Positions 4,086-30,953 of a stretch of DNA of 64,000 bases are shown here, piece after piece (the first letter of the stretch is position 1; the number at the start of each line of letters is the position of its first letter). The stretch lies in contig NZ_QDDL01000010.1 of NCBI RefSeq assembly GCF_003097315.1, positions 41,969 to 105,968 on the forward strand, read 5' to 3'. This DNA comes from Pelagibaculum spongiae (GTDB lineage: Bacteria; Pseudomonadota; Gammaproteobacteria; Enterobacterales; Pelagibaculaceae). Both the position numbers and the translations under genes were made by a program. The notes beneath the pieces are model-generated. The model worked only from the letters and a program-made list of their open reading frames with translations. It was not told the DNA's origin and did not search any database.

Positions 4086-5777
4086 GTGACTTTTAAAAAA
4101 GTCGGTCCATACCCTTCATCTCATGATGATGTGGAACTAGATGCGTTAATGGATGGTTATCGCATTGAAGGTCCCGGAGACGTACTTCAGGCTCTAGTTC
4201 GCATTCAACATTTCTTGGGCTGGGTTCCACCACAGTTAAGAAAAGCATTAAGCGAACGCACCCGCGTTACCGAGACTAAAATCCGAGGGATTATCGATTT
4301 TTACCATCTACTGGATGCAGAGCCCACGGCACCATGGGTTGTTCACCTGAGTACTAACATCACCGATATGATGCTTGGTCAACAAACCAACATTGACCGG
4401 TTTAATAAGTACGCCAAAAAAAATCCAGGCAAGATTCAAGTTAATGAAACCTCTTGCACCGGATTATGCGAACAAGGCCCTGCATTATTAATTAATGGTT
4501 TTGCAATGGGCCGTATTAATGCACAACGTGTCGATGACATATTGGCATTAATTAGCACTGACACCCCATTAGATCAATGGCCAGCCAACTGGTTTGAAAT
4601 CTCCAGCAATATTCGCAAGCCTGGCCCATTACTGCGCCACCATGTTGTTGCTGGCGAAGCTTTGGCCAAGGTTAAAACCGCATCACCTGAAGATTTCATC
4701 CTCAAGCTGGATCATGCCGGTTTGAAAGGTCGCGGTGGCGCGGGCTTTAGTACCGCATTTAAATGGCAGGCTTGTCGTAAAGCGATTGGCGATCATAAAG
4801 TGGTTGCCTGCAATGCTGACGAAGGCGAACCCGGAACATTTAAAGACCGTGTGCTGTTAGATCGGCATATTGAAAATGTACTGGAAGGCATGACTATTTG
4901 TGGTGAAGTGATAGGTGCCAAGAGCGGTTATATCTATCTTCGCAAAGAATACATTTACATGTATGGCCACATTAATAATGCGATTAAAAAACGCCGTGAA
5001 GCAGGCTTATTAACTGAAGATTTTGATATTGGCATTCACATGGGCGCTGGCGCTTATGTTTGTGGTGAAGAATCTTCAATGCTCGATTCAATGGAAGGCA
5101 AGCGTGGCATTCCACGGATTAAACCACCATTCCCAGTCGATCAAGGTTTCCTTGGCCGCCCTACCGTAGTCAACAACGTAGAAACCTTTTGTAACGTTGC
5201 GCTATTGGCGGACAAAGGCTTGGATAACTTCCGTTCAGTCGGTTGTAGCCACACCCCTGGCAGTAAATTGCACAGTATTTCGGGCGATTGTAAACACCCT
5301 GGTATTTACGAATTCCCTCTGTGTACCAGCATCGCTGAAATGATGAAGGCATGCGGCGGCAAAGAAGCTGCCATGGTTCAGGTTGGTGGCGCAGCAGGTC
5401 GTTTAATTACTGAAAACCGTTTCGATACCGCAATTGATTTCCGTCGCTTATATAGCGCTGGTTCAATGATGGTATTTAATAGCGATCGTCAACCAAAGGA
5501 TTTACTGCATAACTTCAGCCATTTCTTTGTTCACGAAAGCTGCGGTTTCTGCACCCCTTGTCGTGGTGGTTGCCAAATGTTGGCCGCTTACAGCGACCAG
5601 GTTATGAACGGAACCTTGCAAAAGCAGGATGAAAAAACGCTGCTTGATACTTGTAAGCTGATGATGACTACCAGCCATTGCGGCTTGGGTAAAACAGCTG
5701 GACAAAGTATTGGTCAGATTTTCCATCATCATCTGAAAGCCCAGAAGGCAGAAAATCAGGAAATGGCTCATGAGTAA
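4086..5777 (+). CDS. hoxF: NAD-reducing [NiFe] hydrogenase diaphorase subunit HoxF (NuoF-like with fused NuoE-like N-domain)
   Basis: NuoF FMN/NADH motif GLKGRGGAGFSTAFKW. C-terminal 4Fe-4S Cys cluster (ESCGFCTPCRGGC). N-terminal thioredoxin-like segment with CTGLC. GTG start. First gene of a contiguous hoxFUYH array. Confidence 0.85.
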   Translation: MTFKKVGPYPSSHDDVELDALMDGYRIEGPGDVLQALVRIQHFLGWVPPQLRKALSERTRVTETKIRGIIDFYHLLDAEPTAPWVVHLSTNITDMMLGQQTNIDRFNKYAKKNPGKIQVNETSCTGLCEQGPALLINGFAMGRINAQRVDDILALISTDTPLDQWPANWFEISSNIRKPGPLLRHHVVAGEALAKVKTASPEDFILKLDHAGLKGRGGAGFSTAFKWQACRKAIGDHKVVACNADEGEPGTFKDRVLLDRHIENVLEGMTICGEVIGAKSGYIYLRKEYIYMYGHINNAIKKRREAGLLTEDFDIGIHMGAGAYVCGEESSMLDSMEGKRGIPRIKPPFPVDQGFLGRPTVVNNVETFCNVALLADKGLDNFRSVGCSHTPGSKLHSISGDCKHPGIYEFPLCTSIAEMMKACGGKEAAMVQVGGAAGRLITENRFDTAIDFRRLYSAGSMMVFNSDRQPKDLLHNFSHFFVHESCGFCTPCRGGCQMLAAYSDQVMNGTLQKQDEKTLLDTCKLMMTTSHCGLGKTAGQSIGQIFHHHLKAQKAENQEMAHE

Positions 5778-6507
5778 TTCCAATACCATTTTAATTGATG
5801 GCCAGGAGGTTCCTTTTGAACCAGGTGAAACCGTTCTGGCTGCGGCAAAAAAAGCAGATGTTTATATTCCACATCTTTGCTTTCATCCTGAAGTAACAGT
5901 TCATGGTAGCTGCAAGCTCTGTACAGTAAAAATAAATGGTCGCTGCGTATCTTCTTGCCTGACTAAAGCTTCATCGGGCATGGCTGTGGAAAACAGCAGC
6001 GAAGAAATTCTCGATTTGCGCAAGCAATTAATCGAGCTTTTATTTGCTGAAGGTAACCACTACTGCCCAACTTGCGAACTGTCAGGTAATTGTCAATTAC
6101 AGGCCTTGGCCTATGAATTTGGCATTACTCATACTCGCTTCCCACTGCAATATCCAATTCGGGAAATGGATGCAACGCATCCAGATATCATTCTCGATCG
6201 TGATCGTTGCATTAACTGTTCACTGTGTCGCCGTGCCAGTGCTCAGGTCGATAAAAAAGATGTCTTCTCGTTAGCTGGACGGGGTCCTGAGACTTATCTG
6301 CAGGTCCACTCTAGCGACGGTACTTTAGGCCAATCAAAACTTACTGTTGATGATTTAGCAGCAAACATTTGCCCCGTTGGCGCTTTATTCCATAAAAAGA
6401 ACAACTACAGCCAACGCCCTGGTCAACGGATTTATGACAATCAGTCGATCGGTGAAGTAGGCAACCAGCGTCTGGAACGAGTCAAAGAGGGTGAAAACCA
6501 TGGCTGA
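5770..6507 (+). CDS. hoxU: NAD-reducing hydrogenase diaphorase subunit HoxU (NuoG N-terminal-like 2Fe-2S/4Fe-4S ferredoxin)
   Basis: 2Fe-2S motif CFHPEVTVHGSCKLC. NuoG-type CPTCELSGNCQLQ. Ferredoxin CINCSLCRRAS and CPVGAL. Start overlaps the hoxF stop. Confidence 0.85.
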   Translation: MSNSNTILIDGQEVPFEPGETVLAAAKKADVYIPHLCFHPEVTVHGSCKLCTVKINGRCVSSCLTKASSGMAVENSSEEILDLRKQLIELLFAEGNHYCPTCELSGNCQLQALAYEFGITHTRFPLQYPIREMDATHPDIILDRDRCINCSLCRRASAQVDKKDVFSLAGRGPETYLQVHSSDGTLGQSKLTVDDLAANICPVGALFHKKNNYSQRPGQRIYDNQSIGEVGNQRLERVKEGENHG

Positions 6508-7042
6508 TCAAAAAATAAAGGTAGCCACCTGTTCTCTGGGCGGATGCTTTGGTTGTCACATGTCGTTACTAGACATCGACGAAGCACTGATCGAAGTTGA
6601 AAAACACGTTCAGTTCGATCGCTCACCCATTACCGATATCAAAAATATTTCTAAATGTGATTTAGGTTTAATTGAAGGCGGTCTGTGTAACGAAGAAAAT
6701 GTTCACGTACTAAAAGATTTCCGCGAGAACTGCAAAGTTTTAGTTGCTGTTGGTGCCTGCGCAATTAATGGTGGGTTACCTGCTATGCGCAATGGAATCG
6801 ATGTTCAAGATTGTCTGAAAGAGGTGTATCAAACCGGTTATAACCTAACCACTGATATTATCCCCGATGACCCGGAAATTCCGCGCTTACAAGAAAAAGT
6901 GCAACCGTTGCACGAACTGGTGAAAGTAGATTATTTCTTACCAGGTTGCCCACCACCTGCACCGGCTTTTCTTGAACTCATTACGGCACTGCTTGAAGGC
7001 CGCGAACCTAATATTGATTATCCACATAGGCGTTTTGACTAA
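6500..7042 (+). CDS. hoxY: [NiFe] hydrogenase small subunit HoxY (NuoB-like)
   Basis: ATCSLGGCFGCHMSLLD and GACAINGG...LPGCPP motifs of the NuoB/hydrogenase small subunit. ATG at 6500 (a GTG alternative at 6491). Overlaps the hoxU end. Confidence 0.85.
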   Translation: MADQKIKVATCSLGGCFGCHMSLLDIDEALIEVEKHVQFDRSPITDIKNISKCDLGLIEGGLCNEENVHVLKDFRENCKVLVAVGACAINGGLPAMRNGIDVQDCLKEVYQTGYNLTTDIIPDDPEIPRLQEKVQPLHELVKVDYFLPGCPPPAPAFLELITALLEGREPNIDYPHRRFD

Positions 7043-8520
7043 TGGAAAACCAAACGCAAGCTGGCCTCCGCCGTATCGCCATTGAGCCGATTTCCCGCGT
7101 AGAAGGCCACGGAAAAATTACTCTACTGCTTGACGACGAAGGTCATGTTAAGCAGGCACGTTTACACATTGTTGAATTTCGTGGATTTGAAAAATTCATT
7201 GAAGGCCGCCCTTATTATGAGCTGCCATTATTAGTTCAGCGCTTATGTGGTATTTGTCCGGTGAGCCACCATTTGGCAGCAGCCAAGGCAATCGACCAAA
7301 TTAACGGTGTTAAACAATTAACACCTGCGGCTTTAAAATTGCGCCAGTTGTTACACTGGGGACAATTATTACAGTCTCATGCACTGCACTTCTTCCATTT
7401 GGCATCACCTGATTTATTGTTTGGTTACGACAGCGATGTTAGCAAGCGTAATATTATTGGCGTGTTAAAAGAATATCCGGAAATTGCCGTCCAAGGCGTA
7501 AAAATCCGTAAATTCGGCCAAGAAGTTATTCGTGCTGTCAGTGGTAAACGTATCCACGGTATTGCAGCACTTCCAGGTGGCATGAACCAGCCGTTAGACC
7601 GCGAAGTTTATCAATACCTGACCGCTGAAATTGATCAAATCGTTGAGTGGAGCAAAGACGCCGTCGAATTGGCTCGTCGCTTGTGCCTAGAAGACACCGA
7701 ATTATTTAATTCGTTCGCTAGCACCGAATCACCTTATATGTCACTTACTGACGAAAAGGGCGGCCTAGAATTTTACGATGGTAACTTGCGTGTTAAAAAC
7801 GCTGACGGTTCGATCCTTAATGATCAGTTCCCGAATGAGCGTTACACCGACTTAATTCAGGAAGAAGCCAAGAGCTGGAGCTATATGAAGTTCCCATTCT
7901 TGCGCTCAATTCGTGAAGCGCAAGGTGGCGACTCTGGCTGGTATCGCGTTGGCCCATTGGCTCGAATTAATAACTGTGATTCTATTTCGACGCCTTTAGC
8001 CGAGCATTATCGTCAAGATTTTATGAAAATAGCGGGTAACCCGCTTGCGCATCAAAATCTGGCGTTCCACTGGGCACGAATGATTGAAGCATTGCACTGT
8101 GCAGAATCAATTCAGAAAGTGCTGGCAGATCCAGATCTGTTTAGCCTCGATTTAGTCGCTAAAGGCAATAGACAAAGCTCAGGTATCGGTATTATCGAAG
8201 CGCCTCGTGGCACCTTATTCCATCATTATGAAGTCAATGATGACGACCAAGTCACCATGGCGAATCTGATTGTATCGACTACTAGTAATAACTTTGCCAT
8301 GAACGAAGCAGTTTGTTCAGCGGCTAATCAGCATATTGATGGTAATGAAGTTACACCTGGCTTGTTAAATCTGCTAGAAGTTGCTGTGCGTTCTTATGAC
8401 CCATGTTTGTCTTGTGCTACCCACGCAATTGGTAAAATGCCGCTGCATGTGGAAATGCTCGATAGCAAAGGTCAGCTGATTCATCAATTAAGTAAAAATT
8501 CGAATGGTGAGTTTAGCTAA
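7042..8520 (+). CDS. hoxH: [NiFe] hydrogenase large subunit HoxH
   Basis: N-terminal Ni-binding RLCGICPVSHH and C-terminal DPCLSCATH motifs. A ~30-aa C-terminal extension beyond the His, consistent with protease processing. Confidence 0.9.
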   Translation: MENQTQAGLRRIAIEPISRVEGHGKITLLLDDEGHVKQARLHIVEFRGFEKFIEGRPYYELPLLVQRLCGICPVSHHLAAAKAIDQINGVKQLTPAALKLRQLLHWGQLLQSHALHFFHLASPDLLFGYDSDVSKRNIIGVLKEYPEIAVQGVKIRKFGQEVIRAVSGKRIHGIAALPGGMNQPLDREVYQYLTAEIDQIVEWSKDAVELARRLCLEDTELFNSFASTESPYMSLTDEKGGLEFYDGNLRVKNADGSILNDQFPNERYTDLIQEEAKSWSYMKFPFLRSIREAQGGDSGWYRVGPLARINNCDSISTPLAEHYRQDFMKIAGNPLAHQNLAFHWARMIEALHCAESIQKVLADPDLFSLDLVAKGNRQSSGIGIIEAPRGTLFHHYEVNDDDQVTMANLIVSTTSNNFAMNEAVCSAANQHIDGNEVTPGLLNLLEVAVRSYDPCLSCATHAIGKMPLHVEMLDSKGQLIHQLSKNSNGEFS

Positions 8521-8619
8521 GGTTAATAATTCGATAATTTAATCGATTATTTTTCTAACTAATTTATTCTAGCGGCCAGTCGGTCGCTGGAATAAAAAAC
8601 ATTTAGCAGGTTTATTGCT

Positions 8620-9105
8620 ATGAGTGACCATCTCAGTAAGACAAAAATTAGTTTGATTGCCTATGGCAATATTGCCCGCGGCGATGATGGTGCAGCACCG
8701 GTACTGTTAAATCGAATTGAAGAAATTCAGTCACAAATAGACTGTCAATTGCATCTGGTTGAAGATATGCAGCTCGGCCCTGAGCATGCATACGATTTAA
8801 AAGACGTCGATGCAGTCATATTTCTCGACTGCGACAGTCAATGTGAAACCATCAGTTTCAAGCAATTAGCCGCACAAATTAACGTTCATTTTTCTAGCCA
8901 TGCCCAGACACCGGAAACCGTGATGTCACTTCATGGCATGCTAACAGAATCAGAAACACCACCCTGCTATCAATTAGGCATTGGCGGTGATGATTTCGAA
9001 TTAGGGCAGAATATGAGTGAACGGTGCCACAAGAATTTGAAGTTGGCACAAGCTCATTTGTTGAGCCTGTTAGAAACTCCAGTATCACAATGGAACCCAC
9101 TTTAA
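8620..9105 (+). CDS. hoxW: hydrogenase maturation endopeptidase (HoxW/HycI family, peptidase A31)
   Basis: N-terminal LIAYGNIARGDDGAAPVLL matches the GNxxxGDDGxG motif of hydrogenase C-terminal proteases. Immediately downstream of hoxH. Confidence 0.75.
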   Translation: MSDHLSKTKISLIAYGNIARGDDGAAPVLLNRIEEIQSQIDCQLHLVEDMQLGPEHAYDLKDVDAVIFLDCDSQCETISFKQLAAQINVHFSSHAQTPETVMSLHGMLTESETPPCYQLGIGGDDFELGQNMSERCHKNLKLAQAHLLSLLETPVSQWNPL

Positions 9106-9709
9106 AAAAACGAATACCGATAGATCAAAATAGAACCTAACTTAACGGCACACGTTAAAGAAAGACCATAACGAAATGCAATAACGAGAAGTACAACAAA
9201 GAGAAATACCACTGGATAGCGCCAGTTAGGCATTAATATCACTATCACTTAACTGCCAGAGTATTTTTCATCAGCAATGCCCAATGCTGATCTTCAGGAA
9301 AGCCCGTTTATAACGGCAGTCTTTGCTCATGTAATAGCGAGCGATGGTTGCCGTTTTTTATTGCTTGGCTAAAGCAGACGCATCTCGATTAAACCCGCAT
9401 ATCAATCATTGTATTTTTCCTGCACGATTTAGCAGATATGCCGCACTCGATAATATAGCTACCTTAGTGCATTACCTTCTTCGAATACTTACGCAGCCAC
9501 CAATACAACTTCATCCAAGCAACATTGCAAAATATGACATTTGATATCAGCTGACGATTTTTATCCTGCCAAGCAGTATAATCATCACGGCTTGCTGCTT
9601 TTACTGAGGCGGCAGCGACTTGTAACCATTAGTGTTGATACGAGATAATCTTGGTACTCGGATAGTGTCAGCGCTCATAGCTTCTATCGAACCCAGCTAG
9701 AGAAACTTA

Positions 9710-10087
9710 ATGCTTAACTCAATTATTGCCATTAGTGCCGGTGCTTCTATCGGTGCAACACTTCGCTGGCTGATCGGTAGTGCGCTGAATTCATTATTTC
9801 CAAGCATCCCCCCTGGAACCCTAATTGCTAACCTGTTGGGTGCTTATTTAATTGGCCTGGCCTTGGCAATGTTCGCTCACTTTCCCAGCTTGGCGCCTGA
9901 ATGGAAACTACTGGTGATTACCGGTTTTCTCGGCAGCCTGACAACCTTTTCAACTTTTTCTGCCGAGATCACTGGCTTGCTACAACAGGGGCGAATAATG
10001 ATGGCGGCGGGCGCAATTAGCCTGCATTTGTTTGGCTCTTTAATTATGACCAGCTTGGGTATGTTCAGTGGATCGTTATTAAAATAA
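9710..10087 (+). CDS. crcB: fluoride ion channel CrcB/Fluc
   Basis: 125 aa, 4 TM. GATLRW...[13 protein letters not shown] hallmark. Confidence 0.85.
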
Positions 10088-10298: not shown

Positions 10299-11201
10299 CT
10301 ATGCTACCTTTTTGATTTGTCGTTGCGGTCTGCTTCCGTACAAATTAATCAGCGCACCGCTAATAATCAAACCCCCGCCGATCCAAGTCCAATAAGTCGG
10401 CAGTTCACTAAATAGCGCCCAGCCTAACAACATCGAAAAAATAACTTGAACATAGGAATACGCAGTTGCGCTACTCGCTGCTTCTGTTTGCATCGCTTTG
10501 GTTAAGCCGACTTGGCCGATCTGAGTGAAAATGCCAATCAATACCATCAAGCCAAGCACTTCCAGATTAGGCAGCACAAAATTGTCGGCCAGTAACAGTA
10601 GCAACATAGAAATTGGCAGAGCTATCAACGGGAAGTAAAAAATAATCACCGAGCTGTCTTCACTTCTACTTAGTTTTTTAACAATGACATAAGCCACCGC
10701 ACTGCCAAAAGCACCTAACAATGCTGCCATAACACTTATCAGCGGTAGTGACGCTGTCGCTTCAGAGATGACACCACCCAATATAAAGTCCGGCCGCACC
10801 ATGACCAGCAAGCCAGTAATGCACAGTAAAATACAAATAATCGTGGTTGGACGCACCCTCTCCTTTAGAAATACAAGTGCCAGAATTGCGGTAAATACCG
10901 GGTATAAATACTGCAAGATGGTCGCTTCAGCCAAAGGCAGGCTGGTCACCGCAAAATAAACACACATCAGCGCCAATGCTCCGGCACAGCCCCGAGCAAT
11001 CAACAATGGTTTATTGTTACCCCAGATTGATAACTTCTTACGCCGCACATCTACATAGCTAATCACTAGCGAGACAATTGCCCTGGCTGCAACAATTTCC
11101 AATACTGGAATACCATAGTTACCGACCACCTTTACACAAGCGGTCATTAAGGCAAACCCGAGTGCCGACAGCACCATATAACGTACACCAATGGATATCA
11201 T
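10299..11201 (-). CDS. EamA/DMT-superfamily transporter
   Basis: 300 aa, 10 TM, duplicated EamA-like halves. Confidence 0.7.
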   Translation of the reverse strand: MISIGVRYMVLSALGFALMTACVKVVGNYGIPVLEIVAARAIVSLVISYVDVRRKKLSIWGNNKPLLIARGCAGALALMCVYFAVTSLPLAEATILQYLYPVFTAILALVFLKERVRPTTIICILLCITGLLVMVRPDFILGGVISEATASLPLISVMAALLGAFGSAVAYVIVKKLSRSEDSSVIIFYFPLIALPISMLLLLLADNFVLPNLEVLGLMVLIGIFTQIGQVGLTKAMQTEAASSATAYSYVQVIFSMLLGWALFSELPTYWTWIGGGLIISGALINLYGSRPQRQIKKVA

Positions 11202-12322
11202 TGAAACCTGCTAGATTGGAAAAAGAGCCAATAAAATAAAATAACGTAATGCGAATATAAGCTTGAACGGGAAACAAACATTTCAGAAATTATATCATTT
11301 CAAGCCTTAAAAACTGCCGCCATTGTATTCAGTTTGAGCGTCATAACAAGCTTTACTATTACCAATGCTTATTTCAAAACATTGGTAGCAGTGAAACCAC
11401 ACTGTCATCCTTTGCTTTTCAAACAAGCAAGATACCAATGGAAAACACTCCCTTTCTTGCCAAAGCTGGCATGTTGCTCGGTTTAATCATCGGCAGAATG
11501 TTAGGCGCTGATATTTGATGCATTGCAATGGGTTTGGGCGGGCTTTGGCTAGGAAATGTAATTAGCGCGATTATTTCTGGCGAAATCATCTCTTATATAG
11601 AAATCACCTGGGAGTCAGATGTTCGATATCAACGAGCGACACAGCCTTTCTCTTTTTGGCTTAATCTATTGATCGAATTTTTTGTGGGTGTAGTTGCAAT
11701 TTCTAGTACTTTTCCCAAAGACTTATATAAAGACTAAAAAAACGCCAACTACTGTTGATGCAGTAAAAGTGTCACCATGCTCGATGCTAAGCCAAATAAA
11801 TAAATAAAATAATTTACTTGTCTCTCTTAAGACTCATTTTGAACATGTAAATAGAATCGTAAATCAATCATGTTCGGCAACGCTCAAAATTCATATGATC
11901 AATCAACCACAAGAACCCCTGTAAAACTCCAGTTTAGTTGTGCAGGTGTTATTTATGTTTTTTGAGTTTCCTTAGTGCTCAATCTTTTCATTAAATCACT
12001 CTGAAAACATGGTTATGAGCGCTTACCATAGCTTCGCACTACGATTGATTTGTTGCGAAAGATTCTCATTTGCTTATGCCGAAATAATCTATCACAGAAA
12101 CTACATTCAAAACTTTAACTATTTCAATAGCAATTAGAAAAACCTAATGCAAAGAAGCACCTAACAAGAAAATATGTCGCATTATTTGTGATGACGAGCC
12201 AATAGTTTCAAAGCACACTGCGCGCAGCTTGTCACTTCATTAATAGCGCACACATATATCAGCTTGTCTTATTGATAACTGAGTGCAAGAACATTGACCT
12301 TAACTTCAGGAATAATCACCCT

Positions 12323-13318
12323 ATGAAAATCAAGCCTGTTTCAATTTTTGCTGCTGCTTTGCTTGCTAACACGCCTGCAATGGCTGAAGGTTTGAAAATT
12401 CAAAATAGCGACCTTAACCTTCAGTTTGGAGGTCGAATTCAATATGATTACAACCGTTCAGAAGAAAATAATCAGGTTGATGAAGATGATTTTAATTTAC
12501 GACGTGGTCGCCTTTTTGTGAAAGGAAATATCTCTGAAAACTGGTCATTTAAAACCCAATTTAATGTAGATGGAAGCGGCGCTGAAGATTTATACCTTCG
12601 CTATAACGGTTTCGATTCAGGCCAGACAATTACAATTGGTAACCAGAATATGCCATTTGGCTTGGAAGAGCTTACTTCTTCTAAAGATATTAGCGTATTG
12701 GAACGTTCTGCTATTACCGAACTATTTGCAGTAGGTAAAGCAGAAGGCATTCAATTTAACGGTGCTCTTGGCAACCAAACTTATGCACTGGGATTGTTTA
12801 CAGATAATGACGTTGACTCAGAAAAAGGCTTTGCAGCTCGCTATACTTTTTCTCCAGTAAAAACTCAGAGTAGTGTTTTGCATTTAGGCGTCGCTTATAA
12901 AAACATCTCTGATGATCAAGCACTAGGGCTTGAAGCAGCTTTCGCCACTGGGCCATTTCATATACAGGCTGAATACACAGACGGTACTACTGAATCTAAC
13001 AATGATGCCAGCGGGTACTATGTTCAGGCGGGCTATATTTTTACGGGAGAAACCCGTCCTTATAAAGGTGGAAAATTCAAGCGAGTATCTCCCAGCAGCA
13101 AGAGTGGTGCCTGGGAGGCGGTTGCCCGTTACGAAGATGGTGACGGAAACCATAGCGATATCGAACTGGGTACAACCGATGCAACGGCTTACACTATCGG
13201 ATTAAATTACTACGCAAACAAAAATGTACGTTTAGGCATTAATTATACCGATGGTGAAGATAATAACAGCAACGATACCGGTAATGAGCTACGTCTGCGC
13301 TTCCAAGTAACATTTTAA
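12323..13318 (+). CDS. outer-membrane porin, phosphate-selective porin O/P-like
   Basis: Signal peptide MKIKPVSIFAAALLANTPAMA. Beta-barrel with alternating residues. C-terminal ...LRLRFQVTF. The ORF start is trimmed to the ATG preceding the signal peptide. Confidence 0.65.
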   Translation: MKIKPVSIFAAALLANTPAMAEGLKIQNSDLNLQFGGRIQYDYNRSEENNQVDEDDFNLRRGRLFVKGNISENWSFKTQFNVDGSGAEDLYLRYNGFDSGQTITIGNQNMPFGLEELTSSKDISVLERSAITELFAVGKAEGIQFNGALGNQTYALGLFTDNDVDSEKGFAARYTFSPVKTQSSVLHLGVAYKNISDDQALGLEAAFATGPFHIQAEYTDGTTESNNDASGYYVQAGYIFTGETRPYKGGKFKRVSPSSKSGAWEAVARYEDGDGNHSDIELGTTDATAYTIGLNYYANKNVRLGINYTDGEDNNSNDTGNELRLRFQVTF

Positions 13319-13358
13319 TCAATAGCTTGGTCAATATTCTATTGTGTCAAAATAGACA

Positions 13359-13384
13359 ACCACCAGCTAAGGCTGGTGGTTGCT
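13359..13384. terminator. bidirectional rho-independent terminator between the porin gene and the fdh-associated operon
   Basis: caaccaccagc TAAG gctggtggttg, a perfect 11-bp stem. Confidence 0.6.
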
Positions 13385-13405
13385 ATCTACCAAATGAAAA
13401 GGTAA

Positions 13406-14374
13406 TTAACGACAACCGCAACCACCGTTGCCATCACAACCTTCTTTTTCTTCACCACAGTTTGAAGCTGCGTGCCCCATATCGAGTGGACTTTCTGGTG
13501 CTCTAATGGCTTTTTCTTTAACCACCAATTCACCTAATTGATCCCAGCGATAAGTCGGGCCATCAACGCATACTAAGTGATCGGCCATATAGCAGTGACC
13601 ACACAAGCCAACGCCACAGTGCATTCTGCGTTCTAGCGATAACCAGATGTGATCTGCCGGAAAACCTTTGCCTTCCATAATCCGGCAAACTGCCAACATC
13701 ATGCCTTCAGGGCCACAGGTAATTACATGGTCAAATGGACCATCGTCTTGAATGATCTGATCTAGGTTATCGGCCAATTGGCGACCAGCTAGATAAGACT
13801 TGCTCGCGCCACTACAGTCATCGACCGCTTCATAAAGTTTGCATTGCTCTTGCCAGCGCTCACGCTCTTTTTTCATTACCAGCATGGCTTCATTTCTGGC
13901 TGAGAAATAAACCACTGGCTCGGCAGATGCCTCAATTAATGCATCTACTTTTGCTGCTACTGGCGCTAAACCACAACCACCAGCAATAACTAATACTTTT
14001 TTATCTTTAAGATTTGGCCAGCCCTGACCCATTGGGCCTCGGCCACCGACCATGGCACCTGGTTCCAATTCAAACAGCGCATCTGTCAGCTCACCAATTT
14101 TACGGATCAGGCAGTGAAAATGACCGTTTTCATCAGGCATACTGGCATAAGTAAATGCTGCTTCACCGGCATTTGGAATCGTCAGCATCATAAACTGACC
14201 CGGCTGGACCTTATTGATATTGCATAGATCCGGCATTTCATCTTTGTTTAGACTCTCTCCCTCGTTAAAGGGCGCAAAAGTGAAATGACACAGATCTTCG
14301 CCGTCCTGATATTTATCAACAATGCGCATTAACGCAGGCGTGTGATCGATCAGTTGTTGCTTATGCATTAGCAA
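13406..14374 (-). CDS. FAD/NAD(P)-binding 2Fe-2S oxidoreductase subunit (HydG/AsrB/PyrK-like)
   Basis: Ferredoxin-NADP-reductase-like fold. C-terminal CGVGLCGHCYMADHLVCVDGP cluster. Last gene of the fdh operon. Confidence 0.7.
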   Translation of the reverse strand: MLMHKQQLIDHTPALMRIVDKYQDGEDLCHFTFAPFNEGESLNKDEMPDLCNINKVQPGQFMMLTIPNAGEAAFTYASMPDENGHFHCLIRKIGELTDALFELEPGAMVGGRGPMGQGWPNLKDKKVLVIAGGCGLAPVAAKVDALIEASAEPVVYFSARNEAMLVMKKERERWQEQCKLYEAVDDCSGASKSYLAGRQLADNLDQIIQDDGPFDHVITCGPEGMMLAVCRIMEGKGFPADHIWLSLERRMHCGVGLCGHCYMADHLVCVDGPTYRWDQLGELVVKEKAIRAPESPLDMGHAASNCGEEKEGCDGNGGCGCR

Positions 14375-15398
14375 TTGCCTCCATCACTGAATGTACTCCG
14401 ATGGAGCCAGGACAGGTTACTTCACAGCGACCACAACCGACGCAGCCATAGCTGTCATCCATGCGGGATGCGATATCATCAGAAAATTTATGGAACCAGA
14501 AACGTTGAACCCTCTTGCCAGAAGCTTGCGTTGGGTTAGCGCCACTAGCTTCTTTTTGAAAGCCTTCCATTAAGCAAGAATCCCAGAAACGCTCACGCAC
14601 ATAACCGGTGGGTGTTTTAATATCTTCAACCGCATAACAACTGCAGCTTGGACAAACCATGGTACAGCCCGAGCAGCTTAGGCACTGAATACCTAACTTG
14701 TCCCATAATTCATCAGGAATGGCACGCGCATTTAAGCGGCGAATACCGTTTAATAATTGAGTGTCATTAGGGAAAGATGCCTTGGCACGTTTTTCGGTCA
14801 ATTTGCGCCAATAATCCCAACCTTCCTCTGCTAATTTAAGGTTCATTCCCCAAATTGCATGTTCACCTGCCTGGCTGTTACAGCCTAACCACCAGCCCGC
14901 TTGCTCACCGGCAACTGAAGGCATTGGAATTAAAACCAAGTCTGCCGTGCCGTCACGTACCGTTGGGCCTGCATCGACTGTTGGGCAAAAACCACCTTCG
15001 CAAGGCGCGTGGCAATCAATACCAACCAACAAAGTTTGACGACGGCGCGCCTGGTAATTTGGGTCGGTAGCGAAATGCTTATCTTGATAAGCAATCGCTT
15101 TTAAATCACAGGCTTTAACACCAAATAAAACCCGCTTTTCTATACGAGGAATAATCGGTTTAAATGTTGGGTTTTCTGCACCAGCTTCAAAACGGAATAA
15201 ATCTTCACGCTCGGAGAAAAAGAAATCTTTTGGCGACATTAATGGACGTAATTCGTCATCGAATTCTTCAACTGCACCATGGGCAATTGGTTGCCAGCTA
15301 CCATTGCCAGTTGCATCCATGACTGGTTGAAAAACTTCTCGCTCTTCAGATAACCAATTACGTAAAAATTCTGGTCGCTCCAGTTTATAAACTTTCAT
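14361..15398 (-). CDS. 4Fe-4S dicluster subunit (sulfhydrogenase HydB / AsrA-like)
   Basis: Multiple CxxCxxC motifs (CLSCSGCTMVCPSCSC; CVGCGRCEVTCP). Overlaps both neighbours. Confidence 0.7.
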   Translation of the reverse strand: MKVYKLERPEFLRNWLSEEREVFQPVMDATGNGSWQPIAHGAVEEFDDELRPLMSPKDFFFSEREDLFRFEAGAENPTFKPIIPRIEKRVLFGVKACDLKAIAYQDKHFATDPNYQARRRQTLLVGIDCHAPCEGGFCPTVDAGPTVRDGTADLVLIPMPSVAGEQAGWWLGCNSQAGEHAIWGMNLKLAEEGWDYWRKLTEKRAKASFPNDTQLLNGIRRLNARAIPDELWDKLGIQCLSCSGCTMVCPSCSCYAVEDIKTPTGYVRERFWDSCLMEGFQKEASGANPTQASGKRVQRFWFHKFSDDIASRMDDSYGCVGCGRCEVTCPGSIGVHSVMEAIANA

Positions 15399-17521
15399 TA
15401 TGCAACCACTCCTGATGCCGCTTCTTCTGCCGCAAGGTTTTCTAACTTGATCACCTGAATTGATCTTGGCTCTACGCCCGCTGGCAATGCGGTTACTTTA
15501 ACTGCACAAGCTTTTAATTCAGGCATTTTAGTGATCGGATCTTGTACGTCGTTGGTCAACTGATTCGATGGCGTATCATTAAAGTGATACGGCATGCTGA
15601 CTAAGCCTTGTGGCAATTCTTCAATCAGAACCACTCGCGTTTCTAAATAACCACGGCGTGAACTTACCGATACCGGCGCATGGTTATACAAGCCCATGTT
15701 GGCACCATCTTGCAGGTTCATGAACAACACGCCTTTTGGTGTTTCACGTTCCAAAATCGGTGATTTACGCGTCATCGAACCACAACCATAATGGAAGTGC
15801 AGACGAATCGTCGTCAAATAGAAAGGGAAATCAGCATCTGGATTTTCTGCAGGTGGCAACCAGTTCAGCGGAATTAATTGCGCTTTACCAATGGGAAATT
15901 CTTTGCGATGTAATACGCGGCTTCCCTGAGGTTTTTCTCGCGTGCAGGGCCATTGCAGACCATGGTTTTCTGCTAAGCGTGGATAGCTCATTTCTGAATA
16001 AATAGGCGTTAAACCAACTAATTCATCAAATACTTCTTCAGCAGCATTCCAGTCCATGCCGCCAATACCAAACTTTTCGGCTAAAAGGCCCATCATTTGC
16101 CAATCAGTTTTACACTGGCCCATTGGCTCAACGGCTTTACGAATTCTTTGAACTCGGCGCTCACAGTTAGAAAAAGTACCGTCTTTTTCGGCAAAACTAG
16201 CCGCGGGTAAAATCACATCAGCAAACTTGGCAGTCTCCGTCATCACCATTTCAACAACCACTAAAAAATCTAGCTTGCGTAATGCTTTTTCTACTTGGTT
16301 TTGATCTGGGTCGGTCACGACAGGGTCTTCGCCAAACACCATCATGCCCATGAACTGGCCTTGCATGGCCGATTCCAACATACCCAAAGAAGTCATACCG
16401 GGCTTGTTAGCGACCGAAGTGCCCCAGGCTTCAGAGAATTTTTTCTGAACCGCTGGATCATTAGCATTCTGATAACCCGGATAAACACCCGGCAAAGCAC
16501 CCATATCACAGGCACCTTGAACATTGTTTTGGCCACGCAGCGGGTTAATACCTGCGCCGCTTTTACCGACTTGGCCACACACTAATGCTAGGTTCGAAAT
16601 CGACATAACATTGTTAGTGCCGGTGGCATATTGGGTCACACCCATGCCGTAAGCTAAAAATGCAGCACGTGCTTTTGAATAAATTCGAGCAGCCTGAATT
16701 AATTGATCAACAGGCACGCCGGTAATTTCACTGACTTTTTTCGGCGTATATTGTGAAACTTGCTTGCGCAATAAATCTTCTTGTTCGCAACGGGCATCGA
16801 GGAATTCACGATCTTCCCAACCACGATCAAAAATAATATTTAAAAGACCATTAATTAAAGCAACGTTAGTACCGAGCTTTAATTGTAAATGGACATCAGC
16901 TAATTTAGCTAAACGGGTTTGCCGTGGATCAACCACCACCAGCATTGCACCACGTTCTTTAGCGCGAATCATTTCGCTACCAATAATGCAGTGGCTTTCA
17001 GTTGGGTCACAACCAAAAATCACCACCACGTCGGCTTTTTCAATATCGCCGATGCTATTGGTCATCGCGCCTTCACCGAGGGTGCGAGATAAACCAGCAA
17101 CCGAAGGGCTATGACAAATTCGTGCACAATGGTCGATATTATTGGTTTTTAATACCGCACGGCCGAATTTTTGAATCGCGTAATTATCTTCATTGGTTGC
17201 ACGGGCACAGCTCACCATTCCTACCGCTTGCGGACCATGGGAGTCGAGATAACTACTGAACTGCTCATGAATCAGATCTAGCGCTTCATCCCAACTCGCC
17301 TCACGAAAGCTTTTACCTTCACGAATTAATGGCGTGGTAATACGATGCTTGGGGCCGACACCAAAAGCAGTACTCCAACCTTTAGAACAAAGTCGACCTT
17401 TACTGATCGGATGATTTTTAATCGGTTCAACGCCAACGACTTGCCCGTCGCGGGTACGCAGACCAATGCCGCAGCCAGTGCCGCAAAATGGGCAGATCGA
17501 CGGGATGGTTTTAGTGGCCAT
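15398..17521 (-). CDS. fdhA: formate dehydrogenase catalytic subunit, molybdopterin, Cys-type (FdhF-like)
   Basis: N-terminal CPFCGTGCG...C. Active-site segment HCARICHSPSVAGL aligns to E. coli FdhF HCARVUHGPSVA with Cys in place of Sec. No in-frame TGA. Start trimmed to MATKT. Confidence 0.85.
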   Translation of the reverse strand: MATKTIPSICPFCGTGCGIGLRTRDGQVVGVEPIKNHPISKGRLCSKGWSTAFGVGPKHRITTPLIREGKSFREASWDEALDLIHEQFSSYLDSHGPQAVGMVSCARATNEDNYAIQKFGRAVLKTNNIDHCARICHSPSVAGLSRTLGEGAMTNSIGDIEKADVVVIFGCDPTESHCIIGSEMIRAKERGAMLVVVDPRQTRLAKLADVHLQLKLGTNVALINGLLNIIFDRGWEDREFLDARCEQEDLLRKQVSQYTPKKVSEITGVPVDQLIQAARIYSKARAAFLAYGMGVTQYATGTNNVMSISNLALVCGQVGKSGAGINPLRGQNNVQGACDMGALPGVYPGYQNANDPAVQKKFSEAWGTSVANKPGMTSLGMLESAMQGQFMGMMVFGEDPVVTDPDQNQVEKALRKLDFLVVVEMVMTETAKFADVILPAASFAEKDGTFSNCERRVQRIRKAVEPMGQCKTDWQMMGLLAEKFGIGGMDWNAAEEVFDELVGLTPIYSEMSYPRLAENHGLQWPCTREKPQGSRVLHRKEFPIGKAQLIPLNWLPPAENPDADFPFYLTTIRLHFHYGCGSMTRKSPILERETPKGVLFMNLQDGANMGLYNHAPVSVSSRRGYLETRVVLIEELPQGLVSMPYHFNDTPSNQLTNDVQDPITKMPELKACAVKVTALPAGVEPRSIQVIKLENLAAEEAASGVVA

Positions 17522-18016
17522 AATTTGTCCGTGCTGATAATTCACATATACCCCATCCATGGGCAGAGCAATCCGGGATAATGGATGCAATCATGGCAGG
17601 GCAGGTTTATGGAAAGACCAAACTAAACCAGCAGTCATAGCAGCAGCCTTGACCAAAATCATCAGATATTGTTTCAGCTTCAAAGAACCTTTAACTACCT
17701 CTATTGAGATATTTCCTTTTGGCATCAAGGGTTAAAAGATGCATCCAACTTTACTTTTTCAAGCGAATCCGCAAACCTCAAACGAACGCATAAAACGAAC
17801 ATTTGCGATAACAAACGATACAAACGAAGCTTTGTCGCACCAATAATCGCTTTATCTTTTTTTGTTTCCAAATTTGTCAGTCCAATGATACTGATAAAAA
17901 AATAAGCCGGAAAATTACAAAAAGTCACAATTAAATGGTCATACCGGGCAGTTGACCAATCGGATTTCTATTTAAAAAATACCTTTACTAGATGCCAAAT
18001 CATTAAGAAGCCATCA

Positions 18017-18763
18017 ATGAAAACACTGGAAATTGTTTCACTCAAAGAAATACCTGAAGTGCATAGCCATGACTACCATCAATTAGTGGCTCCGCTCTCA
18101 GGCAGCGCAGAATTTGAAATTGCTGAATTATCGGGTCGATTAGATAGTGGCCGTGGCTGTATTTTGCCTAGCATGGTCAGGCATGGCTTTGCGGGTGATG
18201 GCTCTAACCGGATATTATTGATTAATCTCCCAACCAACATGGTAGCGGTTGAGCACCAAGCGATTTTCCGGCATTACGGCTGGTTTACTATTGATGCCGG
18301 GTTAATGCAGCTACTAGCTGCCACCCACCATGAACTCACGCTATTTCCCAATGACAAGCATTTACAATCCAGTCTGGTCGATTGTCTATTACGCGGTTTA
18401 AATTTACGATTTGCTAACAATAAACAAATCAGCAGCAAAATGGATATGCAGGCGATTACCGATTACTTAGCACGCAATCTTGACCGAGCAATTCACGTTG
18501 CAGATTTGGCAAGGCTGGCTTGTTTAAGCGAGAGTCAATTTCATTCACAATTTCGTAAAACCCACCAATCGACACCGCACCAGTATTTGCTGCAGCTGCG
18601 GTTAAACTATGCTTGCGATCTGTTAAAAGAAAATGACACCAGCATCGCTAATATCGCCCAGCTTTCCGGTTTTTCCAGCCAATGCGCATTGACCCATGCG
18701 ATGAAGAAGTATTTAGGAGTTTCACCGGGCAAGTATCGACAGCGAGTTCAAGGCGAAGCGTAA
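18017..18763 (+). CDS. AraC-family transcriptional regulator (cupin N-domain + AraC HTH)
   Basis: C-terminal AraC HTH (IANIAQLSGFSSQCALTHAMKKYLGVSPGKYR). Confidence 0.8.
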   Translation: MKTLEIVSLKEIPEVHSHDYHQLVAPLSGSAEFEIAELSGRLDSGRGCILPSMVRHGFAGDGSNRILLINLPTNMVAVEHQAIFRHYGWFTIDAGLMQLLAATHHELTLFPNDKHLQSSLVDCLLRGLNLRFANNKQISSKMDMQAITDYLARNLDRAIHVADLARLACLSESQFHSQFRKTHQSTPHQYLLQLRLNYACDLLKENDTSIANIAQLSGFSSQCALTHAMKKYLGVSPGKYRQRVQGEA

Positions 18764-21184: not shown

Positions 21185-21925
21185 TTACTCATGCACAATG
21201 GTTTTTTTCCAAATATTTGGTCGAGAAGATAAAGAGCAGCCGATTCTAAACCCTGCAGAAAAAGAACTGCGACAAAAATTACAATGTAATTTTTGATGTT
21301 TATTATTAGAATTTGCCATTAATTCTACGAGATCTTTTAGGCTTTTTCCTACTCGACCAACCCGGTATCTCACAGTGATAATATCTCTACTTGCACCTTC
21401 AAGCAGCATCGAACTGCTATATGAACGTCGGACTTCTTCATAAGTTTCCCACCAGTCATCCGCAGACAAGCCTCCAGTTTCATTGGGATCGCTGATGAAG
21501 GGCTTGGCTACAGCACCAAATAAATCACCAAAACTTGATCCATGGTAACCTTGGAATTTACTCAAACCATAGTTTCTACACTCAGAACCAGGTTTAAAAG
21601 TTTCATAAGGCGTCAATCTTTTACCTTCTTTCAAACTAGTCAGTTCTGAAAGAGTATTAATATCGCTTAGTAATGAATGTCTATCAGGCACATAAAAACT
21701 TATTTCTATATTATCAGGAACAATAAAATGCTGCTGCGTCAGCGATTGCGATCCGTGACTACTTATCACAAACTCGTCAGATTGCTTCTGTCCCTGCCAC
21801 AAGTAAAAATTTTTACCTAAATCTGTTTTTTGTATCATTAGCAAACTCCGACGTATTAAAATTATGCCGGAGAAAACATTACCGCATCTATACAAAAAAC
21901 AATCATTTTTAACGATAAATTCCAT
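21185..21925 (-). CDS. hypothetical protein (orphan cargo ORF within insertion)
   Basis: 246 aa with no recognisable motifs. It sits inside the ~1.4-kb insert bounded by the direct duplication. The start may be the internal MIQKT. Confidence 0.4.
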   Translation of the reverse strand: MEFIVKNDCFLYRCGNVFSGIILIRRSLLMIQKTDLGKNFYLWQGQKQSDEFVISSHGSQSLTQQHFIVPDNIEISFYVPDRHSLLSDINTLSELTSLKEGKRLTPYETFKPGSECRNYGLSKFQGYHGSSFGDLFGAVAKPFISDPNETGGLSADDWWETYEEVRRSYSSSMLLEGASRDIITVRYRVGRVGKSLKDLVELMANSNNKHQKLHCNFCRSSFSAGFRIGCSLSSRPNIWKKTIVHE

Positions 21926-25474: not shown

Positions 25475-28400
25475 TTAGTTCTGCTGCAAGTCATCACCAA
25501 TCTTCTTCACTCGTTGCCAAATATCATGATCCATTTTCAACTTGTGATCCATTGCTTTTACTACCGGTAGCAATGAAGTTTCGATGGTATTTGCCAGCGC
25601 TTGTAGCACTTTGTCGATACCCGGTTGTGGCTGGTTAATCACTTCAACATTAGGTCTGGAGTGCGCGAATGACTGAGACAGCACTGTAGCAAAATCAACC
25701 TCGGAAATGTGCTGCAGTTGCTGTTTTAACTGTGAGATTTCTCTGCTGATTTCAGCTGAACCATTATCAATATTCGACATTTTCTGCAACTGACTGGCAA
25801 TTACCGATAGCTGTGAAACCGCCTGTGCAGTCGGATCATCCTGATCACCCAAGGTACGGAGGCGCTTGTACTCAGAGCAAATTTCACCCCAGCGCAAACT
25901 TTCTACTTCCGTTAACACACCCCGCAGCTGCTTTAATTTCAGTACGTTTTCTTCGGCACCTGTGGTGAGTGTTTGCGCTTCACCTTTGTAGTGGTCATCG
26001 ATCAGTTGTTCTAGCTCTTGATCATTCATTACCGCACTGACTTTTTCCGACAACCGCGCCATATTGCGATAACTACCTTGCAAACGAAACGGCGGTTCTT
26101 CCCGGTAACGATCATCTTGCGCTGCAGAAGCAATATATTGCTGATTCACCGCTAACAAGACTTGCTGCACTCGTAAGAGTTTTTTCAATACGCCGGTAAT
26201 TTCATCTAACTCGGCGGCGGCATATTCATGGCCAAGATCATCGGTCGATATCGCTTCGCCTCGTGCCAAATCAATCAGCAGATAAATGTCGGCCATATCC
26301 CGATTTACTAGCGGTCGTAATACTTCATTGCTGGCCAGCGCATTTTCAACATAACTGAGTGAGAAGGCATTTTCAGAACCACCAACCAAATCACCCAGGT
26401 TATAAATATCAGCCCGGTTGGCAAGCATATCGGGTATCGAGAAGGCTTCGCCGGATTCGGTATAGGGATTGCCCGCCATTACAACGCAAAAGCGTTTACC
26501 GCGCATATCGAAAGTACGTGGCTCACCATTAATGACACCTTCAATCCTACGGGTACCGTCACAAAGCGAAATAAATTTCTGCAAAAACTCTGGGTGCGTA
26601 TGCTGAATATCATCCACCACCAGCATCACATTATTACCCATTGCCAATGCCAGATTTAATCTTTCCAGCTCACGAGCAGCACCAGAATCAGGGGCTAAAG
26701 CAGGATCCAATGAAGTGGTTTTATGCCCCAAGGCTGGGCCATTGACCTTGATAAACACTAACCCTAAACGGCTGGCGATATATTCCACTAAAGTAGTTTT
26801 ACCGTAACCGGGCGGTGAAATTAATAACAACAAACCTGACCGGTCGCTATTACTATTGCCGCCCGCTGCGCCTAATTGCTTGGCTAAGTTAGCGCCTACT
26901 AACGGCAAATAAACTTGGTTGATTAATTTGTTTCGAACAAAACCACTCATGGGTTTAGCTTGATATTCTTCCAGCTTCAGCGCTTCACGTCTGTCAGACA
27001 AAGCTTTCTGTCGCTGCTTTTGATAACCCTTGAAACCTGGAACCAGCTGGAAACGGAAATGATTTAACCGCTGTTCAAATTCATCAACTGCCAATGACAA
27101 CTGGCCATTTTTAATCGTGGAATGCTCAGACAATAAACCGTCTACCGAAACCTGAGACTGCATCGGCCAAACCCGGCGGTTTAATTTGCTTTCATCAATC
27201 AACAATACTGCTGCTTCGGCAATATAACGATTGGCAGTCGATCCATCATCAATCGAATCTTGCGCACCAATTAAAGCACCCAGCCATTGGCTGGCCACAA
27301 TAAACTGCTGATTAATGGAAAGGCTTTTTAACAGATCTTTAAATGCTGACTGCTGTTTGGCCGCTGCCAGCTGTTGTTGTAACTGCTCTGCCAGCTGCTG
27401 CGCCAGCTCACTGGTTGTGAACTCCAGCCGCTGATTACCTGACGCATCGACCGCGAACTCTGCAATTAACCAGGCTGCGGCATCTCTTGCCAACACCAGT
27501 GGATAGCCCTGACTTTCTCCACCCAAATGGTTCAGCTGGATTTCAATTGATTGCTGCAGTTTTAACTGCAAGCTTTCAACTGCCGATCTGGCATTGAACA
27601 ACAGCTGCATTCGACTGGCATTGGCAGCTTCAATGAGCCATTGCTGCTGATCAGAACGGCTTTGTTGCATCCACCACAATTGCGCCAGTGCTCTGGGCAA
27701 AGGAGCAAACCTTAAAAGACCGGCATTGGCGCGTAATGGCAATAATTGTTCAAGAATTTTACAGGCATCATGATCATGAATACCTTTGGCATAGCTATCC
27801 TGGTAGCGCTTGGAGGCGAACTTGCTAACCTGGCTCAATAACTCACCTTCAGAAAGTGCTTGCTCCAGCCCAGGCAAAGTCAAAGAGTGGGTTTGCTTTT
27901 CTGCCGCATCAATAATTTCTGCAACCAAATATTCGGCTCTGGCAACCTCAGCATTTTCTGAAACTAATGGCTGGTCAGCATATAAATGATCGCTTTCTGC
28001 CAGAGTCGAATAGTGTTTTGCCAGCTTTTCGTAATAATCACTGCCAGTTAAATGAAATTTAAGCTGATCATTTTGACGAATCAGGGTTAATTCCATCGGC
28101 CGGGTATTTACATTAAATTTGTAATCACCCAGTTTGATAATTCGCCCACCATCTTCGAACAAATCAGAACGATCTCTAAGCGAACGAAGCGCCTGGTCGC
28201 GAGCTGAATTTAATTTACCAGATAATTCATCTGCCAGAACGACGGCTTCAAGCTGACGCATTTGATCAATCAAGCCGCGCAGCTTATGTACCATGGCATC
28301 GCCAGAGAACCAGGCGTTTAATGCATCAGCTGTATCAAACTTTTCAGATTTTTGAGCAATTGACTGGAAAATACGTTCTGCAGCTTTTTTCAGGTTGTCG

Positions 28401-30823: not shown

Positions 30824-30953
30824 TAACTGAGAACCACGTAGGTTTGATAAGTTTTTGGCGCAATCAGACAGTTTGTAATCATTAACAAAATGTATGATTC
30901 CGTTTCAATTCATCAAACCTACATATCGTTTTTCTCTTAAATCTGGTTACAGA

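Follow-up and report, generated by a model that had tools for sequence, protein, structure and literature searches.

The window analyzed here, 64,000 nucleotides of the Pelagibaculum spongiae genome (contig NZ_QDDL01000010.1, positions 41,969 to 105,968), carries a three-gene operon that probably encodes a soluble, cytoplasmic, heterotrimeric formate:NAD(P)+ oxidoreductase. The predicted subunits are a formate dehydrogenase (FDH) catalytic subunit with cysteine at the position of the active-site selenocysteine (Sec) (alpha), a HydB-like electron transfer protein (beta), and a HydG-like flavoprotein (gamma). P. spongiae is placed in the Gammaproteobacteria (Oceanospirillales incertae sedis). 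Judging from sequence, the module is of a known and widespread kind, to which the window adds one more member. A preliminary description of the window had proposed that this FDH works together with a soluble hydrogenase encoded nearby, in an arrangement atypical for a gammaproteobacterium. The observations in that description were confirmed, and its interpretation is partly supported. Positions below are counted from the first nucleotide of the window.

Operon structure and the catalytic subunit

The three open reading frames (ORFs) lie on the minus strand at 15398-17590, 14361-15398, and 13406-14374, in the order alpha-beta-gamma. The stop codon of alpha and the start codon of beta overlap in TAATG, and the ATG of gamma overlaps the end of beta (ATGCATAA). 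Because both junctions overlap, which suggests translational coupling, and a single terminator-like hairpin follows gamma (Table 1), the genes are regarded as one operon, consisting of alpha, beta, and gamma only; no genes for the large or small subunit of a [NiFe] hydrogenase are found within it. Three starts are available for alpha, giving 707 amino acids in GenBank (ATG at 17521), 720 in RefSeq (WP_206605699.1), and 730 in the mechanically called ORF (TTG at 17590). The ATG at 17521 is most likely the true start, and the ORF from the TTG is most likely too long; residues are therefore numbered on the 707-amino-acid form. An exact sequence look-up of alpha led to the P. spongiae GenBank entry PVZ65495.1, which bears the name "formate dehydrogenase subunit alpha"; beta, HoxF, and the AraC protein likewise had exact counterparts in this species, and the window HoxH is 100% identical to the P. 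spongiae protein.

The E values of all domain matches in the operon proteins are far beyond chance. Alpha contains the domains Molybdop_Fe4S4 (PF04879; E value, 2.5e-16), Molybdopterin (PF00384), and Molydop_binding (PF01568). It scores 779.2 bits against the Fdh-alpha equivalog model TIGR01591, whose cutoff is 666.25, and covers profile positions 2 to 672 of 672, whereas the nitrate reductase models stay below their cutoffs (NasC, 499 versus 1100 bits; NapA, about 300 versus 900 bits). The best matches among the structures in the PDB are all formate dehydrogenases, led by the coenzyme F420-dependent FDH 9t1s (675 bits), FdhF of the hydrogen-dependent CO2 reductase (HDCR) (643 bits), and the Methanospirillum hungatei Fdh (619 bits), followed by Escherichia coli FdhH (552 bits) and FdsA-type enzymes (about 500 bits), with NapA at 328 bits. 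A neighbor-joining (NJ) tree was built with E. coli FdhF, FdnG, NapA, and YdeP and three FDHs from the PDB as references, and the rows from two high-G+C loci (L061 and L062), which were wrong-frame ORFs, were disregarded. In this tree, which carries no bootstrap values, alpha and its orthologues form a clade sister to F420-FdhA, HDCR FdhF, and E. coli FdhF and lie away from NapA, FdnG, and YdeP. Clustering with nitrate reductases, which had been named as a point to check, is thus found neither in the model scores nor in the PDB ranking nor in the tree.

The active-site residues of alpha are those of the FdhF type. Cys136, His137, and Arg329 align with Sec140, His141, and Arg333 of E. coli FdhH, the motif CARICHSPSV lying over CARVXHGPSV (X is Sec140) and NPLRGQNNVQG over NPVRGQNNVQG; the codon of Cys136 is at 17114-17116. 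The preliminary description was therefore right to place a cysteine (in ICHSPSV) at the Sec position. It was also right that a twin-arginine translocation signal is lacking: the N terminus, MATKTIPSICPFCG, has no twin-arginine (RR) motif and leads at once into the cluster motif, whose [4Fe-4S] cysteines are at positions 10, 13, 17, and 45. These features support the prediction of alpha as a Cys-type FDH that belongs to the FdhF/FdhA clade and resides in the cytoplasm.

The beta and gamma subunits

The two partner genes, described at the outset as a polyferredoxin and an FAD/NAD(P)/[2Fe-2S] protein transcribed together with alpha, have the domains expected from that description. Beta matches Fer4_22 (PF17179) with an E value of 4.6e-25 and contains 16 cysteines. 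Its residues 50 to 334 align with the beta subunit of the sulfhydrogenase I (SHI) of Pyrococcus furiosus (9nez_B; E value, 5e-34); the conserved cysteines of that protein are kept in beta, and the N-terminal cluster motif differs in cysteine spacing. An AlphaFold2 (AF2) model of beta (predicted local distance difference test score [pLDDT], 88; predicted template modeling score [pTM], 0.88) superimposes with a template modeling (TM) score of 0.79 to 0.80 on 9nf0_B, from the NADPH-bound SHI complex, beyond which there was no other meaningful fold match in the PDB. Gamma contains FAD_binding_6 (PF00970), NAD_binding_1 (PF00175), and DHODB_Fe-S_bind (PF10418), the last being the PyrK-type [2Fe-2S] domain, and carries the motifs GGCGLAP at residue 130 and CGVGLCGHC at residue 251. 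Its length is 320 amino acids from the ATG at 14368 or 322 from the TTG at 14374. The best PDB match of gamma is the gamma subunit of SHI (9nez_C; E value, 1.1e-26), and SHI is the only solved complex matched at high significance by beta and gamma together. These matches support a role for beta and gamma like that of HydB/HydG-type proteins, as a predicted NAD(P)-type diaphorase.

The scores of both proteins fall far short of the equivalog cutoffs of the named families, reaching 137.8 of 690 bits for ShyB, 124.8 of 750 for HydB, 94.9 of 650 for HydG, and 85.4 of 600 for ShyC. The same holds for the sulfite reductase models, with AsrA at 94.3 of 323 bits (beta) and AsrB at 137.9 of 288.6 bits (gamma). 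The genes adjoining the operon encode a porin and an AraC-family regulator, and neither an asrC gene nor any other gene for a NIR_SIR protein is adjacent; an AsrABC assignment, raised earlier as a possible objection, is not borne out.

The arginine of the gamma motif YFSAR, located after beta-strand 2, was considered as an indicator of NADP specificity. It aligns with that of TAR in SHI gamma, which uses NADPH, and with that of GAR in NfnA, the NADH-binding subunit; since both have the arginine at this position, the criterion was rejected. Gamma ends in a Cys-rich tail, MGHAASNCGEEKEGCDGNGGCGCR (13406-13480, minus strand). Comparable tails are found in the orthologues of Endozoicomonas, Kistimonas, and Parendozoicomonas, a single terminal cysteine is found in those of Pseudomonas, Stutzerimonas, Moraxellaceae, and Paraglaciecola, and the tail is absent from those of Vibrio, Photobacterium, and Colwellia. 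The idea that the C-terminal cysteine of gamma serves as the fourth ligand for three seemingly extra cysteines of beta was rejected because SHI beta has the same cysteines and the gamma proteins of Vibrio, Photobacterium, and Colwellia are tailless.

Distribution of the module and its neighborhood in the window

A scan of 185,579 species-representative genomes with an alignment of the beta subunit as the query yielded 80 loci; by tblastn with the window proteins, 65 loci have a beta identity of at least 38%, and these were taken as the related set. In 58 of these 65 loci all three genes are present, with the order alpha-beta-gamma preserved and a single strand shared by all, and the other 7 are interrupted by contig ends. 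The carriers are mostly gammaproteobacteria, with a few members from outside that class, and include Kistimonas, Endozoicomonas, Parendozoicomonas, Pseudomonas/Stutzerimonas, Vibrio, Photobacterium, Colwellia, Paraglaciecola, Porticoccus, and Moraxellaceae. The closest relatives are those of Kistimonas, Endozoicomonas, and Parendozoicomonas, with identities of 71 to 73% by tblastn and 73 to 76% in the trimmed alignment for alpha and 54 to 63% for beta. All 59 loci with a complete, parsable alpha ORF encode cysteine at the active-site position. The operon is thus present in at least 65 other bacterial species and looks ordinary, so that its description as atypical for a gammaproteobacterium is not supported.

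A gene for a FocA-like channel of the formate/nitrite family (FNT) is found in 23 of the 65 loci and directly adjoins the operon in 21. The products of these linked genes reach about 225 bits with FocA models, which is below the FocA cutoff, compared with 100 to 120 bits on NirC models, and they provide independent support for formate as the substrate. A published study of formate in Vibrio natriegens lists fdhA/fdhF genes, one of them formate induced, that may or may not be orthologous to those of the present operon.

Distant homologues of beta and gamma (25 to 31% identity) are present at seven Lachnospiraceae loci (L071, L073 to L075, L079, L081, and L083). The order there is beta-gamma-(gap)-alpha, with a molybdopterin oxidoreductase gene about 1 kb downstream whose product is 23 to 26% identical to the window alpha and groups with NapA, not with the FDHs, in the NJ tree. 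These loci appear to represent a different enzyme on the same diaphorase cassette.

The hydrogenase genes lie where the preliminary description had put them, with 4.3 kb between the end of the hox cluster and the end of gamma. The hydrogenase genes proper occupy 4086-8520. The homologues of HoxH match PF27537 (HoxH) and are named NAD-reducing hydrogenase in their sources, and the window HoxU scores 176.6 on its model, below the cutoff of 333. By these matches the neighbor is a Hox-type, group 3, NAD-linked [NiFe] hydrogenase, which is given here as context and not as a demonstrated part of the FDH module. No group 4 [NiFe] or [FeFe] hydrogenase is present in the window. The hox and fdh genes are on opposite strands, and between them are crcB, a drug/metabolite transporter (DMT) gene, and a Porin_O_P porin gene on mixed strands. 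Homologues of the window neighbors of fdh, among them hoxF, hoxU, hoxY, hoxH, hoxW, and the AraC gene, were found within about 10 kb of fdh in none of the 65 loci, 40 of which have flanks of at least 8 kb on both sides. Two close relatives of the window HoxH (70% and 65% identity), one from a BD1-7 clade bacterium (L089) and one from locus L090, share hox synteny with the window. They have hypFCDE divergently upstream of hox and hypA-hypB downstream, and no FDH gene was found around hox in either. HypA to HypF and FocA gave no tblastn match in the window. For HypD of the BD1-7 bacterium as the query, the 120 best matches did not include P. spongiae. Because no hox gene was found near fdh in any of the 65 loci and no FDH gene near hox in the two HoxH relatives, and because three genes and a change of strand separate the two clusters, their proximity seems to be coincidental and particular to this genome; the functional pairing proposed for them has no comparative support.

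Table 1. Positions of the fdh operon and of associated features in the window
Feature	Position	Strand	Basis or remark
fdh alpha, predicted Cys-type Mo/W-bis-pyranopterin guanine dinucleotide FDH catalytic subunit, 707 amino acids	15398..17521	-	TIGR01591, Pfam, PDB, PVZ65495.1
fdh beta, HydB-like poly-[4Fe-4S] putative electron transfer subunit, 345 amino acids	14361..15398	-	PF17179 Fer4_22
fdh gamma, HydG/AsrB/PyrK-like putative FAD + NAD(P) + [2Fe-2S] subunit	13406..14374	-	PF00970, PF00175, PF10418
Intrinsic-terminator-like hairpin with a 12-bp stem and then a T-rich tract	13356..13383	-	23 nucleotides past the gamma stop codon; between gamma and the convergent porin gene
AT-rich intergenic region fdh alpha/araC, 495 bp	17522..18016	.	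Presumed promoter/operator region
AraC-family regulator, divergent neighbor	18017..18763	+	AraC-type helix-turn-helix match
hoxF (E-F fusion)-hoxU-hoxY-hoxH and maturation protease	4086..9105	+	NuoE/NuoF, HoxU, small- and large-subunit, and protease matches

The divergent AraC-family gene noted earlier was also found, on the other side of the intergenic region upstream of alpha. In this region the octamer TCGTTTGT is repeated in tandem, with two exact copies spaced 9 bp apart (17811-17827), and a copy with one mismatch lies 33 bp off (17778-17785). The exact octamer occurs 3 times in the 64 kb, including the 2 copies in the fdh-araC intergenic region, and the repeats are a possible candidate operator for a regulator. 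A scan of 13200-18100 for sigma-70 promoters showed no enrichment over shuffled sequence. FNR/CRP-type sites (TTGAT-N4-ATCAA with at most two mismatches) were also considered; two weak sites in the intergenic region and one upstream of hoxF were set aside because about one per kilobase is expected by chance. A link between the AraC regulator and the operon would be specific to this genome and is unsupported by conservation.

Elsewhere in the window, the minus-strand region 25475-33741 contains an ORF of 1,782 amino acids whose domains are DUF3686 (described as an ATPase involved in DNA repair), DUF7902, and AAA_22, followed by ORFs of 697 and 216 amino acids that both have no Pfam match; this region may be a defense or DNA repair island. 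Genes for an FRG-domain protein (899-2236), a Stv adhesin-domain protein (21185-21925), and a YopJ-like Peptidase_C58 protein (34124-34786) are typical of host-associated bacteria and are consistent with the sponge-associated source. The fluoride exporter gene crcB is at 9710-10087, and the 600 bp before it (9105-9710) have no Rfam match, no fluoride riboswitch being detected at the gathering threshold. Three noncoding gaps of 1.1 to 1.8 kb (2996-4086, 11201-12272, and 37295-39104) contain no ORF of at least 100 amino acids and no Rfam or tRNA match; over the whole window, Rfam at the gathering threshold and a tRNA scan found nothing.

Predicted reaction, alternative explanations, and known systems

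In the proposed enzyme, alpha would hold a molybdenum (Mo) or tungsten (W) bis-pyranopterin guanine dinucleotide cofactor ligated by Cys136 and would use His137 and Arg329 as its catalytic pair to oxidize formate to CO2. Electrons would pass from the N-terminal [4Fe-4S] cluster of alpha along the [4Fe-4S] chain of the HydB-like beta and enter the HydG-like gamma, whose [2Fe-2S] cluster and FAD would carry them to NAD+ or NADP+. Beta and gamma would thus form the diaphorase cassette that ties a [NiFe] core to NADP(H) in Pyrococcus SHI, here joined to an FDH. The standard potentials (E0') are about -420 mV for formate and -320 mV for NAD(P)H, and the reaction is reversible in principle. Since oxidation of formate is downhill and many of the orthologous operons include a FocA-like channel gene, this is the likely physiological direction, and it may serve formate detoxification with a gain of NAD(P)H.

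Several points weigh against this interpretation. Beta and gamma are, by their model scores, a separate subfamily outside the HydB/ShyB/AsrA and HydG/AsrB/PyrK equivalogs. The sequence of gamma fits both NAD+ and NADP+ as the probable acceptor, and that of alpha may accommodate either Mo or W. Neither focA, pfl, fdhD, nor mobA is present in the window, and genes for molybdopterin biosynthesis (moa) are likewise absent from it. In addition, no purified or assayed enzyme of the FdhA-HydB-HydG composition was found in the literature searched, a weak absence because most subscription journals lay outside the search, and the pyridine-nucleotide acceptor is therefore assigned from homology only.

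The alternatives differ in direction, in coupling, or in the identity of alpha. In the cell, the same complex might instead reduce CO2 at the expense of NAD(P)H, making formate as a redox sink or for one-carbon metabolism. Metal-dependent FDHs are reversible, genes of the same arrangement in Desulfurivibrio dismutans have been read in this way (PMC12142623), and the NADP-linked Fdh3 of Thermococcus onnurineus reduces CO2 with NADPH in vitro (PMC8965080). The FocA-like genes linked to the operon are compatible with either direction. However, CO2 reduction with NAD(P)H is thermodynamically unfavorable, and most of the carriers, as their physiology is generally known, are heterotrophs that live aerobically or as facultative anaerobes and lack a Wood-Ljungdahl pathway, so this possibility is considered rather unlikely. 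Another alternative, that of the preliminary description, is that the FDH and HoxFUYH together make up a membrane-independent formate hydrogenlyase in which electrons flow between formate and H2, in one direction or the other, by way of NAD(P)H. The two sets of genes are intact, with 4.3 kb between them, both enzymes are predicted to use pyridine nucleotides, and nothing in the sequences forbids it, but this coupling is decidedly improbable. It meets not only the separate occurrence of fdh and hox described above, with hyp genes and no FDH near hox in the two HoxH relatives, but also the lack of hyp genes in the window, the opposite strands, and the intervening crcB, DMT transporter, and porin genes. 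Moreover, the production of H2 from NADH costs about 18 kJ/mol under standard conditions, and an NADP-specific FDH with an NAD-specific Hox would require a transhydrogenase.

It is also conceivable that alpha is not an FDH at all but an assimilatory nitrate reductase or a sulfur compound reductase, with beta and gamma as AsrAB-like proteins or as the sulfur reductase half of a sulfhydrogenase. The NasC and NapA models are significant on alpha although below threshold, beta and gamma resemble AsrA and AsrB, and FNT channels can carry nitrite or hydrosulfide as well. Against this, alpha exceeds the FDH equivalog cutoff and reaches less than half of every nitrate reductase cutoff, the Cys-His dyad and the arginine are FDH signatures, the NJ tree places alpha with the FDHs, no siroheme protein gene asrC is nearby, and the FocA scores of the linked FNT genes are about double their NirC scores; a non-FDH identity is accordingly highly improbable. 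A more far-reaching reading would combine several elements, namely, a widespread class of Cys-ligated, NAD(P)-linked metal FDHs that is possibly oxygen tolerant, since most of the carrier gammaproteobacteria live aerobically or facultatively; in P. spongiae, a connection between formate and H2 that bypasses the membrane by way of a pyridine-nucleotide pool shared with Hox; and a functional gamma tail. If it were true, the Cys-rich tail might act, for example, in metal or sulfur handling or in redox sensing, but the combination as a whole is unlikely.

If the prediction of a formate:NAD(P)+ oxidoreductase holds, many cultivable marine and soil gammaproteobacteria would possess a compact, selenium-free enzyme of three subunits. 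It would be a candidate for NAD(P)H regeneration or for NAD(P)H-driven CO2 reduction and could fill a gap in accounts of how Vibrio, Photobacterium, and Pseudomonas metabolize formate. As far as the window itself is concerned, the result is mostly a correction, in that the operon is common, alpha had already been named by NCBI, and the coupling to the hydrogenase lacks comparative support.

Among known systems, the group 3b [NiFe] sulfhydrogenase SHI of P. furiosus (9nez/9nf0) has the beta-gamma cassette in common with the P. spongiae operon. It differs in its catalytic partner, which is a [NiFe] large/small subunit pair instead of an FDH, the identity is about 26%, and the host here is a mesophilic bacterium. 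Alpha, for its part, is 40 to 47% identical to the FdhF/FdhA-type FDHs (E. coli FdhH, 1aa6; Thermoanaerobacter kivui HDCR FdhF, 7qv7; F420-linked FdhA, 9t1s; and M. hungatei FdhA, 7bkb), with which it shares a length of about 700 amino acids, the domain order, the N-terminal [4Fe-4S] cluster, and the Sec/Cys-His pair with arginine. The metal ligand is Sec in FdhH and in the FdhA of 9t1s and Cys in alpha. The partners of those FDHs are a group 4 hydrogenase in formate hydrogenlyase, HycB filaments with an [FeFe] hydrogenase in HDCR, and the F420-binding FdhB, whereas a HydB/HydG-like NAD(P) module is predicted to take their place here. FdsABG(D), the NAD+-dependent enzyme of Rhodobacter capsulatus and Cupriavidus necator (6tg9/6tga), is likewise a soluble, Cys-ligated metal FDH that reduces pyridine nucleotides, with a match of about 500 bits in the catalytic domain. 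However, FdsA has a NuoG-like N-terminal extension of about 250 residues and NuoE/NuoF-like partners with FMN; alpha aligns with FdsA from residues 253 to 284 onward only, and no NuoEF-like gene is present in the operon. AsrA and AsrB of Salmonella AsrABC are homologous to beta and gamma (94 and 138 bits) at scores well below the cutoffs, and the catalytic subunit here is a molybdopterin enzyme.

The tungsten-containing Fdh3 of T. onnurineus also has a cytoplasmic Cys-type FdhA (Cys133-His134-Arg325), is coupled to NADP+, and has a formate transporter gene in its operon (PMC8965080). It was considered as an example of the same architecture and rejected because the partner subunits differ. By the published descriptions, these are an NAD(P) subunit of 39 kDa modeled on NfnI, with a GXGXXG FAD motif, and two 18-kDa Fe-S proteins, without a HydB/HydG pair (PMC8965080). 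The FdhA-HydB-HydG genes of D. dismutans, predicted from the genome and proteome to encode a CO2 reductase in an autotroph, are likened to the P. spongiae operon by description; they have the same three-gene arrangement and NAD(P)-linked electron path, operating in the reverse direction (PMC12142623).

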